Assembly: GCA_039815185.1 (NCBI GenBank)
Contig: JBCBZT010000015.1
Location: 64,001-128,000 of the forward strand
Direction: 5' to 3'
Length of the DNA: 64,000 bases
Source: Cyanobacteria bacterium P01_A01_bin.123
Lineage (GTDB): Bacteria > Cyanobacteriota > Cyanobacteriia > Phormidesmidales > Phormidesmidaceae
Below, piece by piece: positions 40,881 to 47,021 of this stretch (its first letter is position 1; every line of letters begins with the position of its first letter). A model generated the notes under the pieces. The model saw nothing but the letters and a program-made list of their open reading frames with translations, searched no databases and was not told the DNA's origin. A program made the translations under genes and the position numbers.

Positions 40881-41786
40881 TTACAGTAATCCCTGCTCCT
40901 CTAGAAATTCGCGAGCCACTTCATCCGGTTCACGACCATTGCCAGCCACCTCCCAATTGAGGGTGCTCATGGTTTCATCGTCAAGGAGGACTGTGACGCT
41001 GTTCAGCACCTCAGCAATTTCAGGGTTAGCATCTAGCGTTTCCTGACGAATAAAGGGTGCAACTGGATAGGGAGGCCAGAATTTCTGGTCGTCTTCGAGC
41101 ACCAACAGGTCAAACGCGGCAATTTGGCCGTCGGTGCCATAGCCCGTGGTGACATCGATATCGCCAGTATCCAGACCGCTGTAAAGTAGACCGGGGTCTA
41201 GAGACTTAACCTCAGCAAAGTCAAAACCGCCATAGGTTTCTTTGAGCGCAGGTAACCCATCGCTACGGTCGGCAAATTCTAAGTCAGTGCCAAAAATTAG
41301 ACCACTGGCGTTTGCAGAAATATCACTAACGGTAGTTACCCCCAATTCATTGGCGCGATCTTTGGTCATCACCAGCGCATAAGTATTGTTGAAAGAGGTC
41401 GGATCTAGCAAAACAACGCTGAACTGCTCGACATAGTCAGCTTTGACCTTGTCATACACATCCATCGTAGACATTGCCGGATCATAGGTTTGTTCTAGAT
41501 GTACCAGTAAGGCCGTGCCAGTATATTCAGGATACAGGTCGATTTCACCCGCAATTAGGGCTGCATGGTTTTCGCTAGTGCCGCCAAGGGCATTGTAATC
41601 AGCGTTGTAGCCCGCGTTGTCGAGCACCATTTCAAACATGTGGCCTAGCAGATACTGCTCGGTAAATTCTTTTGAGCCAATTTTGATCTCAGGACCATCT
41701 GATGAGGAACCCCCGCTACAAGCAGATAGAGCCACCGTCAACAGAAGAGCTGTGCTGGTTAGAAGGGTTCGTCTTTGAAACTGCAT
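40881..41786 (-). CDS. Osmoprotectant (betaine/choline) ABC substrate-binding lipoprotein
   Basis: Lipobox LSAC, GSKEFTEQ, YPEYTGT, FNNTYAL and FWPPY (OpuBC/OsmF type). Confidence 0.92.
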   Translation of the reverse strand: MQFQRRTLLTSTALLLTVALSACSGGSSSDGPEIKIGSKEFTEQYLLGHMFEMVLDNAGYNADYNALGGTSENHAALIAGEIDLYPEYTGTALLVHLEQTYDPAMSTMDVYDKVKADYVEQFSVVLLDPTSFNNTYALVMTKDRANELGVTTVSDISANASGLIFGTDLEFADRSDGLPALKETYGGFDFAEVKSLDPGLLYSGLDTGDIDVTTGYGTDGQIAAFDLLVLEDDQKFWPPYPVAPFIRQETLDANPEIAEVLNSVTVLLDDETMSTLNWEVAGNGREPDEVAREFLEEQGLL

Positions 41787-41841
41787 AATCGATGCCTCTT
41801 GAAAAATAGTTTATGGATAGGGAGGGGACAGGGATGGGGGA

Positions 41842-42936
41842 TTAAGGTGCCGCTGCTGTCCGCAATTTTGCAACATTTGCAGTAGCGCGGAAATGATAGT
41901 AACTGATGATCAGTTCAATACCCGTAATCACTGCGATACTCAGAACTGCCCCAATTAACCAAACAAGGCCTAATGAAGGCGTTTGCTGAATCTTTGTGGT
42001 TAGCCCAAACACCAGCCAAACAAAAGCTGCCGCAGCTGTGCCAAAAGTGATCAGTGTAATCGGCCAAGCGTTGCCACTTTCCCCTCGACGGGGCCACAGC
42101 GTGGCTACTAAGCCCAGCACCAGAACTGGGAGCCCTATAGTCCGATACTCAGCGTGTAGTCCGGTGAGCACGACTGGGTCACTGCCAGCGACAGCCTGGG
42201 TTTCCCAGGGGAGGAGGACGCCAAATAACAGCGGCATTGCTGCTACAACGCATAGTAAGCCAATTAGGCCACCGGCCTTGCGCTGAGAGGTACCAATCTT
42301 TAAACCCTTGGGAGTCACCCAAGTCTCTAGCCGACCAAAGGCTTCTTCAAAGTAGAAAGCTAAGATTGTTGCTGGAATGGCCCCCAGCAGCATCACGTGG
42401 TCACGGTTGAGCTGATGGCCTCGTAAAATCAAGTCGCCCAGCCCACCAGCCCCAATAAATCCGCCAAAGGTGGTGCTGGCGACAATGACCACGGCTGAGG
42501 TGCGAATGCCCGCCATAATCACCGCGATCGCGACTGGCAGCTCTACCTTAAATAAGACCTCAATGTCGCGCATGCCCATGCCTCGGGCCGCTTCTTTCAT
42601 ATTGGCATCAACTTGCTCAATGCCGATCAGGGTGTTGATCAACACTGGCAGCGTGCCGATAAACGTCAGCGCCAAAATGGTGGGTGGGCGACCAATGCCT
42701 AGCAGCGGCAAGGCTAGCGCCAGCACCGCCAAAGTGGGAAACGTATTGCCAATTTTGCCCGCGTTGAGCAAAAACTTTCGCAACCAGCCTACCCGCGACC
42801 CCAGAATGCCAAATAAGACGCCCAGGGTCACCGCGATCGCCAGTGCTGTAAAGGTAATTTGCAAATGCTGACTTAGGGCAGTCGTAAAGTCTTGAGAGCG
42901 TTCGATGAAATACGCCCACATGTCTTGAAATAGCAT
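41842..42936 (-). CDS. Osmoprotectant ABC permease with extra C-terminal membrane domain
   Basis: EAA motif KEAARGMGM and GAGGLG, followed by a hydrophobic extension. Confidence 0.88.
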   Translation of the reverse strand: MLFQDMWAYFIERSQDFTTALSQHLQITFTALAIAVTLGVLFGILGSRVGWLRKFLLNAGKIGNTFPTLAVLALALPLLGIGRPPTILALTFIGTLPVLINTLIGIEQVDANMKEAARGMGMRDIEVLFKVELPVAIAVIMAGIRTSAVVIVASTTFGGFIGAGGLGDLILRGHQLNRDHVMLLGAIPATILAFYFEEAFGRLETWVTPKGLKIGTSQRKAGGLIGLLCVVAAMPLLFGVLLPWETQAVAGSDPVVLTGLHAEYRTIGLPVLVLGLVATLWPRRGESGNAWPITLITFGTAAAAFVWLVFGLTTKIQQTPSLGLVWLIGAVLSIAVITGIELIISYYHFRATANVAKLRTAAAP

Positions 42937-42982
42937 CCAACCCCCAATAGAAATTCCAGTCAAAATTGCGATAGATGAATGC

Positions 42983-43672
42983 CTACCCTTGGGTGGCACC
43001 CGGCAAAGACCGCTCAATCTTGCCAATGACAAAGTCAAAAAACACAGCTAGCAACGCTGCCCCGAGTGCCCCAGCCACCACTTTGTCGTTACGTCCGCCG
43101 CCTGCCGCAATCCCTTCAAAAATCAGCTTGCCAAGGCTGCTGGCCCCAAAATAAGAGGCCAGGGTGGCGAGACTGATGGTGGAGACCACGGCAATGCGAA
43201 TACCGGCAAAGATGACCGGCAGTGCTAATGGTAATTCCACTTGCAGCAAAATGCTCCGCTGGGTCATGCCCATCCCCCGCGCTGCTTCGATAATGGCCGG
43301 ATCAACGCCGTCGATGCCCACTGCCGTATTGCGAATGATTGCCAGTAGGGAATAAACGGTGAGGGCGATAACGGCTGGCGTAAAGCCAATCCCCACGATG
43401 GGAATCATCAACCCAAACATCGCCAAACTGGGTACGGTGTAGAGCATCCCTGCCAGCTTGATCACGGGGTCATAGAGCAGCCGCAGGCGGGTAATCAGCA
43501 CCCCTAGCGGCAGGCTAATCAGCACTGAAAAAAACAGGGTCACAAACGTAATGAGCAGATGACCCCATAAAAATTCCAGCACCCGATCTGGGCGACCGAC
43601 CCCTGGCAAATAGTACAGGACACCGTCCTTCAAGCTGATCAGGAATTCCCCTAGATTGGTAATAAAATCCAT
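42983..43672 (-). CDS. Osmoprotectant ABC permease
   Basis: YTVPSLA, IEAARGMGM and VELPLALPVIFAGIR. Confidence 0.9.
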   Translation of the reverse strand: MDFITNLGEFLISLKDGVLYYLPGVGRPDRVLEFLWGHLLITFVTLFFSVLISLPLGVLITRLRLLYDPVIKLAGMLYTVPSLAMFGLMIPIVGIGFTPAVIALTVYSLLAIIRNTAVGIDGVDPAIIEAARGMGMTQRSILLQVELPLALPVIFAGIRIAVVSTISLATLASYFGASSLGKLIFEGIAAGGGRNDKVVAGALGAALLAVFFDFVIGKIERSLPGATQG

Positions 43673-43682
43673 GCTGCTCCTC

Positions 43683-44810
43683 CTAGCGTCCCGTTGGCAT
43701 CGGTTGGGTTTCAGCAATTAATGCCTGGGCATTTTCAACGGTGACCAGACCGAGCAATCGCTGGTGGGGATCAACCACAGGTAGGTAGCGAATGCCGTAG
43801 CTCAGCATCATGGAGAAAGCATCTTTCATAGTGGCTTCTGCTTCGGTGGTAGAAACCAGATGATGCAGCATTGCCTTAGCCTGCTTGCCAGGATGGGTTT
43901 GGGCCTCTTCGAGCCCCACATACCCAGCCAGTCGGTTGGTCTCGTCTGTAATGAACAGGCTATCGACATTATGCGATCGCATTTTGGCTGCCAAATCTGC
44001 CCCACTGTCATTGACGTTGCCCAACAGTGGCGCTTGCTGCATGACCTCACCCACGCGGACTAGGGTTAGCCGCTTGAGACCACGGTCTGCGCCAACAAAG
44101 TCGGCGACAAAGTCATCCGCAGGTCTGGACAGAATATTGGCTGGGGTATCGAGCTGGGCTAGCACTCCCCCAACCTGCAAAATGCAAACGAGCGTCCCCA
44201 TTTTGAGCGCCTCGTCAATATCGTGGGTGACAAACATGATGGTCTTCTTGAGCTGTTTTTGCAGTCGCAAAAACTCATTTTGTAGGCGATCGCGCGTAAT
44301 CGGATCAATCGCCCCAAAGGGTTCATCCATCAGCATGACGGGCGGATCTGCTGCCAATGCCCGTGCCACCCCGACCCGCTGCCGCTGCCCCCCGGATAGC
44401 TGCTTGGGATAGCGATCCCGAAACTGAGCCGGATCCAGCCCCACAATGTCTAGCAGCTCATCGGCCCGTCGATCAATTTTGGCTTTGTTCCAGCCGAGGA
44501 GTTTGGGTACCACGGCAATATTGTCGCGGATGGTGAAGTGAGGGAACAGGCCAATTTGCTGAATGACGTAACCGATACTGCGTCGGAGTTCGACCTGATT
44601 TTGCTTGAGCACATTGCGCCCGCCTACAAAAATCTCACCGCTGGTGGGCTCGATCAGGCGGTTGACCATTTTCATCGTGGTGGTCTTGCCACAACCAGAC
44701 GGCCCAATCACCACGCAGGTCTCACCTTCCGGCACAGACATGGTTAAGTGGCTGACCGAAGGCTGGCTAGCCCCAGCGTAAACCTTAACCACATCATTAA
44801 ACTGAATCAT
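43683..44810 (-). CDS. Osmoprotectant ABC ATPase with CBS pair
   Basis: GPSGCGKTT, LSGGQRQR and MDEPFGAID, with a C-terminal CBS pair. Confidence 0.93.
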   Translation of the reverse strand: MIQFNDVVKVYAGASQPSVSHLTMSVPEGETCVVIGPSGCGKTTTMKMVNRLIEPTSGEIFVGGRNVLKQNQVELRRSIGYVIQQIGLFPHFTIRDNIAVVPKLLGWNKAKIDRRADELLDIVGLDPAQFRDRYPKQLSGGQRQRVGVARALAADPPVMLMDEPFGAIDPITRDRLQNEFLRLQKQLKKTIMFVTHDIDEALKMGTLVCILQVGGVLAQLDTPANILSRPADDFVADFVGADRGLKRLTLVRVGEVMQQAPLLGNVNDSGADLAAKMRSHNVDSLFITDETNRLAGYVGLEEAQTHPGKQAKAMLHHLVSTTEAEATMKDAFSMMLSYGIRYLPVVDPHQRLLGLVTVENAQALIAETQPMPTGR

Positions 44811-44995
44811 CGGGATCAAAATGAATTTCCTCTGTTAGCAACAGGGAGTAGGGCATGACGCTGATACAGCGTCAATGCTTCACAGGAAAACGGTATTTTT
44901 TTGTCCCAGGTTCTACTCCAAGGAATATTGTTTCCAACATTCCAGCAATTTATCGCTGTTTCCAGCATTCTTAGAGATTGGTTAACAACCCTCTG

Positions 44996-45284: not shown

Positions 45285-45312
45285 TTGACACTGATTGGAG
45301 AATTGCTTTAAT
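45285..45312 (+). promoter_or_regulatory. Candidate sigma70 promoter of the thr leader/thrS transcript
   Basis: Perfect TTGACA (45285-45290), then TGC-TTTAAT (45304-45312) with a 16-bp spacer. Confidence 0.45.
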
Positions 45313-45343: not shown

Positions 45344-45406
45344 ATGAACACAGCAACTACCCTGACTACCACTACCCCCTCAACTATTTCCCTAGGAGGG
45401 TTGTAA
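45344..45406 (+). CDS. Threonine-rich leader peptide 1 (MNTATTLTTTTPSTISLGGL)
   Basis: 8 of 20 codons are Thr, including an ACT ACC ACT ACC run; the ORF overlaps the attenuator pairing segments. Confidence 0.85.
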   Translation: MNTATTLTTTTPSTISLGGL

Positions 45407-45439: not shown

Positions 45440-45476
45440 ATTGCCCTCCAGATATTCTCTGGGGGGCAATGTTTTT
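45440..45476 (+). terminator. Attenuator terminator 1
   Basis: ATTGCCCTCCAGA-TATTC-TCTGGGGGGCAAT then GTTTTT. The 5' arm CCCTCC can alternatively pair with GGAGGG at 45395-45400. Confidence 0.85.
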
Positions 45477-45526
45477 CTAGCTTTTGTATTTAAGACAGGT
45501 TAACCAGAATGCTTATTTTTCTGACA

Positions 45527-45586
45527 ATGCCGTTTGCAATGAACACGACTACCACTACCCCCTCGATCACGCCTGGAGGGACGTGA
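45527..45586 (+). CDS. Threonine-rich leader peptide 2 (MPFAMNTTTTTPSITPGGT; alternative ATG at 45539)
   Basis: Five consecutive Thr codons (ACG ACT ACC ACT ACC); homologous to leader 1. Confidence 0.85.
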   Translation: MPFAMNTTTTTPSITPGGT

Positions 45587-45614: not shown

Positions 45615-45643
45615 CCCTCCTGGCCTGGCTTGGAGGGTTTTTT
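45615..45643 (+). terminator. Attenuator terminator 2
   Basis: CCCTCC-TGGCCTGGCTT-GGAGGG-TTTTTT; competes with the antiterminator GGAGGGAC:GTCCCTCC. Confidence 0.85.
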
Positions 45644-45794
45644 ATTGCCTTGAAAACTTAGCCACATTCAGATCTGTAACGCTCCTGAGCTAAAAGCTCA
45701 AGCGTTTTCCCGGGTTGGAACGCGGCGTTTTGCGCGCCAATTCAAGGTTGCAAATCAGATGGGGTTTATAACTCAAACCAAAGGAGCATTGACA

Positions 45795-47021
45795 ATGGCG
45801 GATCACCGTGAACTTGCAAAAGATATGGATTTGTTTCATTTTGAGGCGCATAGTCCAGGCATGGTGTTTTGGCACCCACTGGGACTTCGGCTCTTTCGCA
45901 GCCTGGAAGACTTTATGAGACAGGTTTATCAAACCTATGGTTTTGAGGAAGTGCGATCGCCCATTGCCCTCAATCGATCACTATGGGAACGCTCCGGGCA
46001 TTGGGAAAAATTTCGACAGGGAATGTTTGTCGTCGGCAGTGTAACCGCAGATGAAAATGATGCCTCAGACCTATCTGTTCTCAATCCCGACTATGCGTTG
46101 AAGCCCATGTCTTGTCCGGCCCATATTGCCATTTATCAGTCTCGCAAACGCAGCTATCGGGAAAATCCGATGCGATTAATGGAGTTTGGTATCTGCCATC
46201 GTAATGAATTGTCCGGCACATTATCGGGATGTATGCGGCTGCGGCAATTTGTCCAGGATGATGCCCATATTTTCTGTTGTGAATCTGATGTGCAGCAGGA
46301 AATTAGCAGTTTTCTCAAGATGGTGCAGCAAGTTTATGCGGCCTTTGGTTATGAGCAATTTTCTCTGCAAATTTCCCTTAGACCAGAGCAGCGGCTTGGT
46401 GCCGATTCTCTTTGGGATAGCGCTGAATCGCTGTTAATCAAAGCCGTTGAATCTCTGGGGTACCGCTATCAATTAGCCGCCAACGAAGGGGCATTCTACG
46501 GGCCTAAGCTGGAAATTAGTTTGCAAGATCAGCTGGGGCGATCGTGGCAGTGTGGCACATTTCAAGTTGATTTCAACCTGCCTCAAATGTTTGAACTTGC
46601 TTTTGTGAATGAACTGGGGCAATTAGAGCGTCCCGTCATGTTGCACCAAGCTGTTCTGGGATCGCTGGAGCGCTGGATCGGCATTTTGTTAGAGCACCAC
46701 GGCGGTATCCTTCCAGTGTGGATTGCTCCTGTACAGGTTGCGATCGCGTCGATTTCCAATAAATCAGCCGACTGGGCAGAAATAATTTTTGCTCGGCTTC
46801 AGCAGCTAGGGGTAAGGGTGGAGCTGCATAACCAAGATCGCACCATCAGTAAGAAAATTCGTGAACTGTCCAAATGCAGAATTCCCTTAATTGCGGTGGT
46901 CGGTGAGCAAGAAGCTAGAGATCAAAGGCTAAATCTTCGACGTTTAGGAACCTCAGAACAACAAGACATGAATCTAGCTGAGTTTGAGCAAAAGTTAGCC
47001 GTGCTCTCCAAACCCGCTTGA
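45795..47021 (+). CDS. thrS: Threonyl-tRNA synthetase, short form (catalytic + anticodon-binding domains only)
   Basis: Starts at DHRELAKDMDLF; contains SGHW, LKPMSCPAH, QDDAH, GAFYGPK, WQCGTFQVDF and GSLERW; AAGGAG RBS at 45781. Confidence 0.95.
   Translation: MADHRELAKDMDLFHFEAHSPGMVFWHPLGLRLFRSLEDFMRQVYQTYGFEEVRSPIALNRSLWERSGHWEKFRQGMFVVGSVTADENDASDLSVLNPDYALKPMSCPAHIAIYQSRKRSYRENPMRLMEFGICHRNELSGTLSGCMRLRQFVQDDAHIFCCESDVQQEISSFLKMVQQVYAAFGYEQFSLQISLRPEQRLGADSLWDSAESLLIKAVESLGYRYQLAANEGAFYGPKLEISLQDQLGRSWQCGTFQVDFNLPQMFELAFVNELGQLERPVMLHQAVLGSLERWIGILLEHHGGILPVWIAPVQVAIASISNKSADWAEIIFARLQQLGVRVELHNQDRTISKKIRELSKCRIPLIAVVGEQEARDQRLNLRRLGTSEQQDMNLAEFEQKLAVLSKPA

Follow-up and report, generated by a model that had tools for sequence, protein, structure and literature searches.

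The 64,000-nucleotide stretch of cyanobacterial DNA analyzed here (the window) carries on its forward strand, at positions 45795 to 47021, a gene for a short threonyl-tRNA synthetase (ThrRS) that we call T3 and that consists of a class IIa catalytic domain with a zinc site and an anticodon-binding domain. The 408-residue product begins M-A-D-H-R and contains the Pfam domains PF00587 and PF03129 and nothing else, the latter being the anticodon-binding domain at the C terminus (residues 314 to 401). NCBIfam TIGR00418 matches it with 455 bits (cut-off, 384) and aligns over profile positions 171 to 561 of 565 only. In alignment, residue 2 pairs with residue 242 of Escherichia coli ThrRS, where the engineered delta-N construct starts, and what is missing is an N-terminal region of about 190 to 220 residues that contains the editing domain. 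T3 is intact, with both the catalytic and the anticodon-binding domain present.

The initial annotation, made from the sequence alone, had described a 408-residue protein that opens at the DHR motif behind a strong ribosome-binding site, with no N-terminal coding region in front of it, and this description is borne out. A Shine-Dalgarno-like AAAGGAG (45780 to 45786, forward strand) lies 8 nt 5' of the ATG, and an AGGA/GGAG-type site precedes the start in the other full-start T3 loci compared. Of 37 aligned homologues, at least 90% share Met1. The frame 5' of the start stays open for 47 codons only (an alternative ATG at 45759 would give a product of 420 residues), and a tblastn search of the contig with the N-terminal region of T1, one of the genome's long ThrRSs, gave no match. 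That annotation had also reported both the TGS and the editing domain absent. The editing domain is indeed missing, as PF07973 was found neither in the protein nor in the DNA upstream (Pfam, tblastn), but absence of TGS is no distinguishing feature, because Pfam finds none in the long T1 and T2 products of the same genome either. The predicted structure superimposes on the E. coli ThrRS core with a TM score of 0.79; AlphaFold confidence falls below 50 at residues 75 to 105 and 134 to 150, which makes the model of little use for judging the active site.

T3 had been proposed to be a second, auxiliary ThrRS, and the host genome (8.09 Mb in 133 contigs, with an estimated contamination of 5.99%) holds three more thrS copies, all with an editing domain, which makes T3 auxiliary and not the sole thrS. 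One copy (C115, 601 residues) is T1-like, and another (C24, 622 residues) is T2-like with Zur-like boxes upstream, both labels being putative and drawn from our tree and from PMC4787780; the third (C40) lies at a contig edge in DNA that is 84 to 87% identical to the C24 region. A long thrS (open frame of at least 606 residues) was present in all 17 other T3 carriers checked, 6 of which have two other thrS genes besides T3. The initial annotation had recommended a search for full-length thrS, which yielded these three copies, and for a free-standing editing domain, of which the tRNA_SAD type was not found: in the host genome, PF07973 matches only one 891-residue ORF, the size of an AlaRS, and the three long thrS copies. 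Matches to PF04073 (a YbaK-like ORF, a 616-residue ORF, and a tRNA_edit-CDPS fusion) were also considered, and none is linked to the T3 gene.

The best 120 protein-search matches to T3 are 62 to 99% identical to it and mostly 390 to 455 residues long, and all named ones among them are cyanobacterial. Within the class, the gene was found in 16 of 401 genomes, the host included (four candidates per genome scored), and of 120 matching plasmid records, three Acaryochloris marina plasmids also carry it. A profile search led to the short protein P0123, whose relatives are ThrRSs of about 395 residues from Vibrio, Photobacterium, Xenorhabdus, Marinomonas, Hahella, and Gynuella; short ThrRSs of this type turned up in 2 of the 401 genomes scanned from a single gammaproteobacterial order. 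In a 47-row IQ-TREE phylogeny under a mixture model, which is unrooted and so silent on the direction of any transfer, T3, the gammaproteobacterial short ThrRSs, and one unassigned short protein group together (support, 99/93) apart from T1 and T2. Forcing T3 into one clade with T1 and T2 is rejected (24 rows, LG+G4; p-AU, 8.9e-16), and the parallel that had been drawn with T2-type enzymes such as thrS2 does not survive this placement and the lack of a Zur-like box (see below). A pattern-based scan of genome contigs was over-general and supplied an outgroup only, 80 loci among the matches listed being proteobacterial thrS of 42 to 48% identity. Judged by these comparisons, T3 is not a T1/T2-type ThrRS but belongs to a sporadic cyanobacterial clade related to the short gammaproteobacterial enzymes. 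Its neighbors here encode an OpuAC-type ABC transporter, a GDSL hydrolase, and a glycosyltransferase, and neighborhoods vary by locus: the most widespread neighbor family occurs at 4 of 37 loci, and across these 37 we found no conserved operon or partner gene and no nearby tRNA gene (the neighbor scans exclude L128, L135, L127, two L139 ORFs, one T3 fragment, and ORFs above 900 residues). T3 loci and proteins are related to each other, so that the counts given here and below are not independent.

Residues are given in E. coli numbering from a pairwise alignment in which T3 positions are offset by 240 before, and by 227 after, a 13-residue insertion. The three zinc ligands, whose retention had been noted, are C107, H158, and H284 (C334, H385, and H511) and are invariant in all 120 clade members; R136 and R293 of T3 (R363 and R520) are the motif 2 and motif 3 arginines of the class IIa core, and these two as well as D383, Q381, Y462, and Q484 are all present and are invariant or nearly so in the 120 clade proteins. 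The atypical motifs near conserved ones that the initial annotation had pointed out are real, but they are fixed across the clade (N333S, L373C, and R512Q in 120 of 120 proteins and G378Q in 119) and thus represent clade signatures, not decay. N333S is shared with 68 of 69 gammaproteobacterial short ThrRSs and R512Q with all 69, neither occurring in any of 91 full-length ThrRSs; G378Q, Y290F, and F521W are likewise common to the two short clades. N333 and R512 adjoin the zinc ligands C334 and H511. Serine at position 333 was also seen in a eukaryote-like protein, P0269. The acidic insertion mentioned in the same annotation amounts to 13 residues relative to E. coli and varies in length and sequence among homologues.

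That T3 is a decaying remnant or a paralogue that charges nothing strikes us as very improbable. In its favor, 6 of 39 T3 loci are interrupted or truncated (L094, L103, L112, L115, L116, and L126; some may be assembly errors), and there are changes at motif 2 and at positions 575 and 577 of the anticodon domain. This copy, however, is intact, and the ten gene pairs that include it have dN/dS values of 0.056 to 0.122, from which the gene is judged to be under purifying selection (six other T3 pairs gave 0.06 to 0.22 and one nearly identical pair 1.0). The substrate residues are kept in 114 to 118 of about 118 clade rows, as are the equivalents of R583, E600, and R609, which we take to have roles in the anticodon-binding domain. 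Moreover, a regulatory region that senses threonine, as the one described below would, has a point only if the gene product replenishes Thr-tRNA.

An observation absent from the initial annotation is that T3 is strongly depleted in threonine. It contains 6 threonines in 408 residues compared with 16 to 18 in the matched cores and 29 to 35 in the whole T1 and T2 proteins of the same genome, and only 1 of 2,863 ORFs in the genome (mechanically called, at least 300 residues) is lower. Threonine averages 1.49% in the T3 clade (118 rows) versus 4.24% in cyanobacterial full-length ThrRSs (11 rows), and 2.53% in gammaproteobacterial short ThrRSs (68 rows) versus 3.82% in proteobacterial full-length ones (79 rows); proteins below 340 or 380 residues were left out of these counts and of the tree mapping of position 463. 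Other short ThrRSs have 0 to 4 threonines in five cases and 8 to 21 in several others, so that threonine poverty is not general to short ThrRSs. The usually conserved threonines at positions 295, 380, and 422 are replaced in T3, T482 is kept, and serines number 31 (16 to 17 in the T1 and T2 cores). A low cognate bias is described for amino acid biosynthetic pathways in the accessible text of PMC4209129, and the depletion in T3 matches that pattern.

Upstream of T3, on the same strand, a predicted promoter is followed by two tandem units, each composed of a threonine-codon leader, an antiterminator, and an intrinsic terminator; the attenuators that the initial annotation had assumed here are therefore real and, moreover, conserved. 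The promoter, of the sigma70 type (45285 to 45312), has TTGACA at 45285 to 45290, a 16-nt spacing, and an extended -10 element, TGn-TTTAAT, at 45304 to 45312; a standard promoter scan omitted it because its -10 hexamer has T at position 2. In 22 of 24 T3 loci, TTGACA occupies the equivalent position, and a relaxed -35/-10 pattern is found in 14 of the 24. Leader ORF 1 (45344 to 45406), which is conserved across loci, has 20 codons, 8 of them for threonine, and includes GGAGGG as Gly-Gly codons at 45395 to 45400, the 5' arm of the antiterminator. It precedes intrinsic terminator 1 (45440 to 45476), a 13-bp stem at 45440 to 45470 (-21.7 kcal/mol) with a T tract, whose CCCTCC (45444 to 45449) can alternatively pair with the GGAGGG of the leader. 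Leader ORF 2 (45509 to 45586) may start at ATG 45509, 45527, or 45539 (25, 19, or 15 codons), has 7 to 8 threonines, including a run of five, and carries its GGAGGG at 45575 to 45580 (alignment of 23 loci); intrinsic terminator 2 (45615 to 45643) consists of a stem at 45615 to 45637 (-13.4 kcal/mol) and six T residues. Both leaders thus end in a Gly-Gly GGAGGG complementary to a CCCTCC in the 5' arm of the terminator 40 to 49 nt downstream, and with 8 of 20 codons in leader 1 and 7 of 15 in leader 2, threonine takes up 15 codons in 35. The two units align locally with a score of 71.5 (best of 300 shuffles, 53) and so probably arose by duplication.

A threonine-rich leader is conserved at all 36 T3 loci with an intact start, 32 of which have two units and 4 one under a strict pattern (L112, L115, and L116, where the gene start is missing or displaced, are excluded). 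Both gammaproteobacterial short-ThrRS loci examined have one such unit each. Among the 79,879 small ORFs of the host genome, six combine a run of a single amino acid with a terminator, and the sole two threonine cases are the T3 leaders. The leader threonine codons are mixed across loci (230 ACC, 162 ACT, 46 ACG, and 42 ACA), a mixture that fits selection on the amino acid rather than on a DNA repeat. Compensatory changes are found in terminator 1: across 23 loci, 81% of the cells are paired, with 14 double changes versus 5.8 in shuffles and none of 500 shuffles as high. The six GGAGGG:CCCTCC pairs of the antiterminator hold in 21 to 23 of the 23 loci and, being almost invariant, give no covariation signal there. 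Rfam, which includes the T-box and Thr_leader families, has no match at gathering score within the window.

The RNA switch was modeled by folding with an assumed ribosome footprint as a mask. For unit 2, the antiterminator is favored in the model with the ribosome at four of the five codons of the run (0.79 to 1.00; 0.38 at the fifth), and the terminator at 0.99 to 1.00 once the ribosome is beyond the run. For unit 1, terminator 1 wins at equilibrium for every ribosome position and the antiterminator forms only in nascent RNA that is without the terminator 3' arm, so that this unit would have to work kinetically. Untranslated, unit 2 folds as the antiterminator and would therefore leak if leader 2 were poorly translated; neither leader ORF has a strong Shine-Dalgarno site.

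Taken together, T3 and its upstream region very likely form a rescue cassette, complete in itself, that answers a lack of charged tRNA-Thr, and, on the strength of its sequence features, T3 is probably made only when charged tRNA-Thr runs short. What we infer about the expression, activity, and trans editing of T3 is as follows. Transcription would start at the promoter about 480 nt upstream of the gene. With plentiful Thr-tRNA, ribosomes would cross the threonine-rich leaders and cover GGAGGG, the terminators would form, and two units in series would hold T3 expression close to zero and give a steep induction. At low Thr-tRNA, a ribosome would stall on the threonine run, GGAGGG would pair with the CCCTCC of the terminator, and RNA polymerase would read through. 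T3 can be built under such a shortage because it needs 6 threonines rather than 29 to 35: loss of the N-terminal region would have removed 11 to 19 and the core would have lost about 10 to 12 more. The enzyme would then charge tRNA-Thr without posttransfer editing, proofreading presumably being left in trans to the resident full-length ThrRSs, and restored charging would close the switch again. The threonine-sensing regulator and the threonine-poor composition point independently to a protein built for expression when Thr-tRNA is scarce.

The composition also bears on a different reading, that T3 is a starvation enzyme that mistranslates on purpose, loading serine onto tRNA-Thr to keep ribosomes moving, with the threonine-poor T3 itself hardly damaged by Thr-to-Ser errors. 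Serine misincorporation by T3 is plausible given its lack of an editing domain and the lack of a free-standing tRNA_SAD protein in the genome, and the depletion of threonine and the enrichment of serine (31 residues versus 16 to 17 in the T1 and T2 cores) fit as well; an attenuator blind to the difference between Ser-tRNA-Thr and Thr-tRNA-Thr could even let mischarging close the loop. Deliberate mistranslation nevertheless seems unlikely, as cyanobacteria make their own threonine and full-length editing ThrRSs, which can edit in trans, accompany T3 in all 17 carriers checked. ThrRS active sites do accept serine, according to the available part of PMC4787780, but loss of an editing domain can also go with higher specificity, as the accessible portion of PMC11415595 has it, and N333S and R512Q beside the zinc ligands might raise the specificity of T3.

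The switch is blind to the cause of Thr-tRNA scarcity. Among candidate triggers of the rescue cassette, failure of T1 through an inhibitor leads, if only tentatively and short of even odds; threonine starvation comes close behind, zinc or oxidative loss of T1 is rather unlikely, and any other trigger is improbable. Considered jointly, an inhibitor and metal loss as causes of T1 failure are somewhat more likely than plain starvation.

A narrower form of the rescue reading makes T3 a dedicated resistance copy against a natural ThrRS inhibitor (borrelidin, obafluorin, or another), with the attenuators sensing the inhibitor, which we hold to be possible, if short of an even chance. Spread of the gene is sporadic and mobile (16 of 401 genomes, three Acaryochloris plasmids, no neighbor family at more than 4 of 37 loci), and an inhibited T1 would keep its editing domain, so that T3 could do without one. 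The change G463S/A makes E. coli ThrRS resistant to both obafluorin and borrelidin (PMC11252418, available text), and 23 of 120 short proteins from cyanobacteria have it, as against none of 91 full-length ones; on the tree it is present in 22 of 116 relatives and needs seven changes, three of them forced by starred branches. L489F (13 rows) appears only together with G463S/A. Yet the T3 studied here retains G463 (its G236), F461, L489, and H309, G463S/A is absent from all 69 gammaproteobacterial short proteins, and the literature consulted names none of the family-wide changes N333S, G378Q, and R512Q as an inhibitor contact. None of the four BorO-type residues is found in this T3 either: the fourth-site positions (Y334, H488, Y515, and T516 of Streptomyces parvulus) are K72, F234, N261, and L262, residues also seen in full-length enzymes, in a mapping from human to E. 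coli numbers that is partly inferred. A polyketide synthase or nonribosomal peptide synthetase gene was found among none of the 161 neighbors scanned, and no biosynthetic cluster was seen near this T3. ObaO of Pseudomonas fluorescens and BorO of S. parvulus are, like T3, second ThrRSs beside a housekeeping one, and the G463S/A of ObaO recurs in part of the T3 clade; they differ, however, in being enzymes by which producer strains resist their own inhibitor through defined substitutions, none of which this T3 has, and the resistance of ObaO or BorO type suggested in the initial annotation is unsupported for this copy.

Alternatively, T3 could be a low-zinc substitute that keeps or binds zinc better than T1 and senses Thr-tRNA in place of Zur, an explanation that we regard as rather improbable. 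Anabaena T1 falls apart without zinc (available text of PMC4787780), and the two strictest changes of the family, N333S and R512Q, flank zinc ligands C334 and H511. On plasmid pREB2, T3 stands among cysS, folE, dihydroorotase, cobW, M23 peptidases, and a MetE fragment, on pREC2 it is near a Fur-family regulator, a metal-binding protein, an M28 peptidase, and dnaG, and in L113 cobW adjoins it; we take these neighbors to be zinc enzymes typical of low-zinc islands. Against this, no cobW or Fur-family neighbor was found at the 13 genome loci scanned, all three zinc ligands are kept, and T3 coexists with other thrS copies, including a T2-type gene here and two further copies in 6 of 17 carriers. 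A Zur-like box (up to 2 mismatches to the consensus, 800 nt upstream) turned up at just 1 of 36 loci, and at the present locus the best match within 800 nt has 5 mismatches; the host's own T2 gene has Zur-like boxes with 2 mismatches. Zur control of this T3 is accordingly unsupported.

The boldest reading, which we consider unlikely, joins these strands: T3 would be a regulated mistranslation or bypass device, stripped of threonine, re-tuned in its zinc pocket (N333S, R512Q), and governed by a double ribosome-stalling sensor, and it would keep ribosomes at work through a collapse of Thr-tRNA, either loading serine or escaping some ThrRS inhibitor of microbial mats; its control region would be the first working cyanobacterial leader-peptide attenuator, imported with the gene as one cassette.

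Among known systems, the closest in function to the rescue cassette are Bacillus subtilis thrZ and Anabaena T2, in regulation the E. coli thr and pheST attenuators, and in build delta-N ThrRS and MST1. The thrZ gene has three tandem T-boxes, elements that bind uncharged tRNA directly, and its product is full length; its tandem antitermination units resemble the T3 pair, whose leaders would instead be read by the ribosome and have no Rfam match in the window. As is proposed for T3, thrZ is a normally silent second ThrRS gene, induced by threonine starvation or low ThrS (PMC3315439, accessible part). In Anabaena PCC 7120, T2 (thrS2) is poor in editing and apo-T1 edits for it in trans, according to the available text of PMC4787780; it is, like T3, an extra cyanobacterial ThrRS with a stress role and weak or absent editing, and reliance on T1 for proofreading, shown for T2, is here proposed for T3. 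Anabaena T2, though, is full length with a damaged editing domain, Zur repressed, and related to T1, whereas T3 is without an editing domain, from another clade, under attenuator control, and threonine poor, and its host has a T2-type gene (C24) as well. The E. coli thrL and pheST attenuators likewise combine a leader of cognate codons with an antiterminator and an intrinsic terminator that exclude each other; T3 differs in its tandem units, cyanobacterial host, and auxiliary-synthetase target and in matching no Rfam Thr_leader. Delta-N ThrRS is a laboratory construct, yeast mitochondrial MST1 a sole organellar enzyme, and Aeropyrum ThrRS-1 an archaeal protein with a separate editing partner, and unlike what is proposed for T3, none is an inducible bacterial spare. 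All three share the two-domain build and fold of T3 (PDB accession numbers 1EVK, 3UGQ, and 3A31, respectively).

Each part of T3 has a precedent, and it is the combination and the host group that appear undescribed in the searchable literature. Attenuators have reportedly been predicted before thrS in some noncyanobacterial taxa (Lopatovskaya et al., 2010), and Streptomyces trpRS1 is said to be induced by ribosome-mediated attenuation. According to PMC4833913, reliable data on attenuation in cyanobacteria were lacking as of 2016, and in the accessible part of a 2026 ribosome-profiling preprint on Synechocystis (bioRxiv 10.64898/2025.12.20.695498) the only possible attenuator peptide precedes aroQ. 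For A. marina MBIC11017 and Scytonema hofmanni PCC 7110, the available part of PMC4787780 gives counts only, two ThrRS genes each. Neither a description of the T3 family nor a demonstrated cyanobacterial leader-peptide attenuator was found in the literature searched, outside which most subscription papers fall.

The T3 leaders offer a conserved, tandem, and easily tested case of predicted attenuation in cyanobacteria, and T3 is also present in the cultured strains Acaryochloris marina MBIC11017 and Scytonema hofmannii PCC 7110. In this family, a naturally editing-less bacterial ThrRS that is depleted in its cognate amino acid persists alongside one that edits, and repeated G463S/A changes in part of the family are a hint that cyanobacteria meet ThrRS inhibitors in nature. 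With this family, one could ask directly whether stressed cells give up fidelity in order to keep translating.

Threonine stripping is more extreme in other lineages than in T3, the short, editing-less cyanobacterial ThrRS, because five ThrRSs of ~400 aa that lie outside both the cyanobacterial T3 clade and the related short gammaproteobacterial ThrRSs have only 0 to 4 Thr residues (P0130 and P0142, 4 each; P0242 and P0253, 1 each; P0224, 0).

Elsewhere in the genome to which the window belongs, two regions carrying a thrS of T2 type, a full-length cyanobacterial form, lie on contigs C24 and C40 and share 84 to 90% DNA identity over ~5 kb; the island was either genuinely duplicated, or one copy comes from contamination (estimated at 5.99% for this genome). 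A further contig, C124, carries a 397-aa open reading frame (L148:778-1968, minus strand) in which an aminoacyl-tRNA editing domain (YbaK-like, PF04073) is joined to a cyclodipeptide synthase domain (PF16715), each exceeding its Pfam cut-off; that a tRNA-dependent synthase should itself carry a deacylase domain seems unusual.

In the window, genes for an OpuAC-type (glycine betaine/osmoprotectant) ABC transporter (40881-44819, minus strand) point away from the T3 promoter across an AT-rich gap of ~460 nt, and this adjoining arrangement is not kept at T3 loci elsewhere. In one genome (L131:7792-8959), T3 is immediately preceded by a gene pair encoding a HipA-like kinase and a DUF3037 protein. 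Several copies of T3 are interrupted: the one at L126:2604-4034 is split by an IS605/TnpB-type open reading frame, the one in L112 is broken into three pieces, and those in L094 and L103 contain premature stops. On plasmid pREB2 of Acaryochloris marina (L155, NC_009927, 106457-125677), T3 is clustered with cysS, folE, dihydroorotase, and cobW, together with a DUF1636 protein, M23 peptidases, and a MetE fragment, and this cluster looks like a plasmid-borne low-zinc island.
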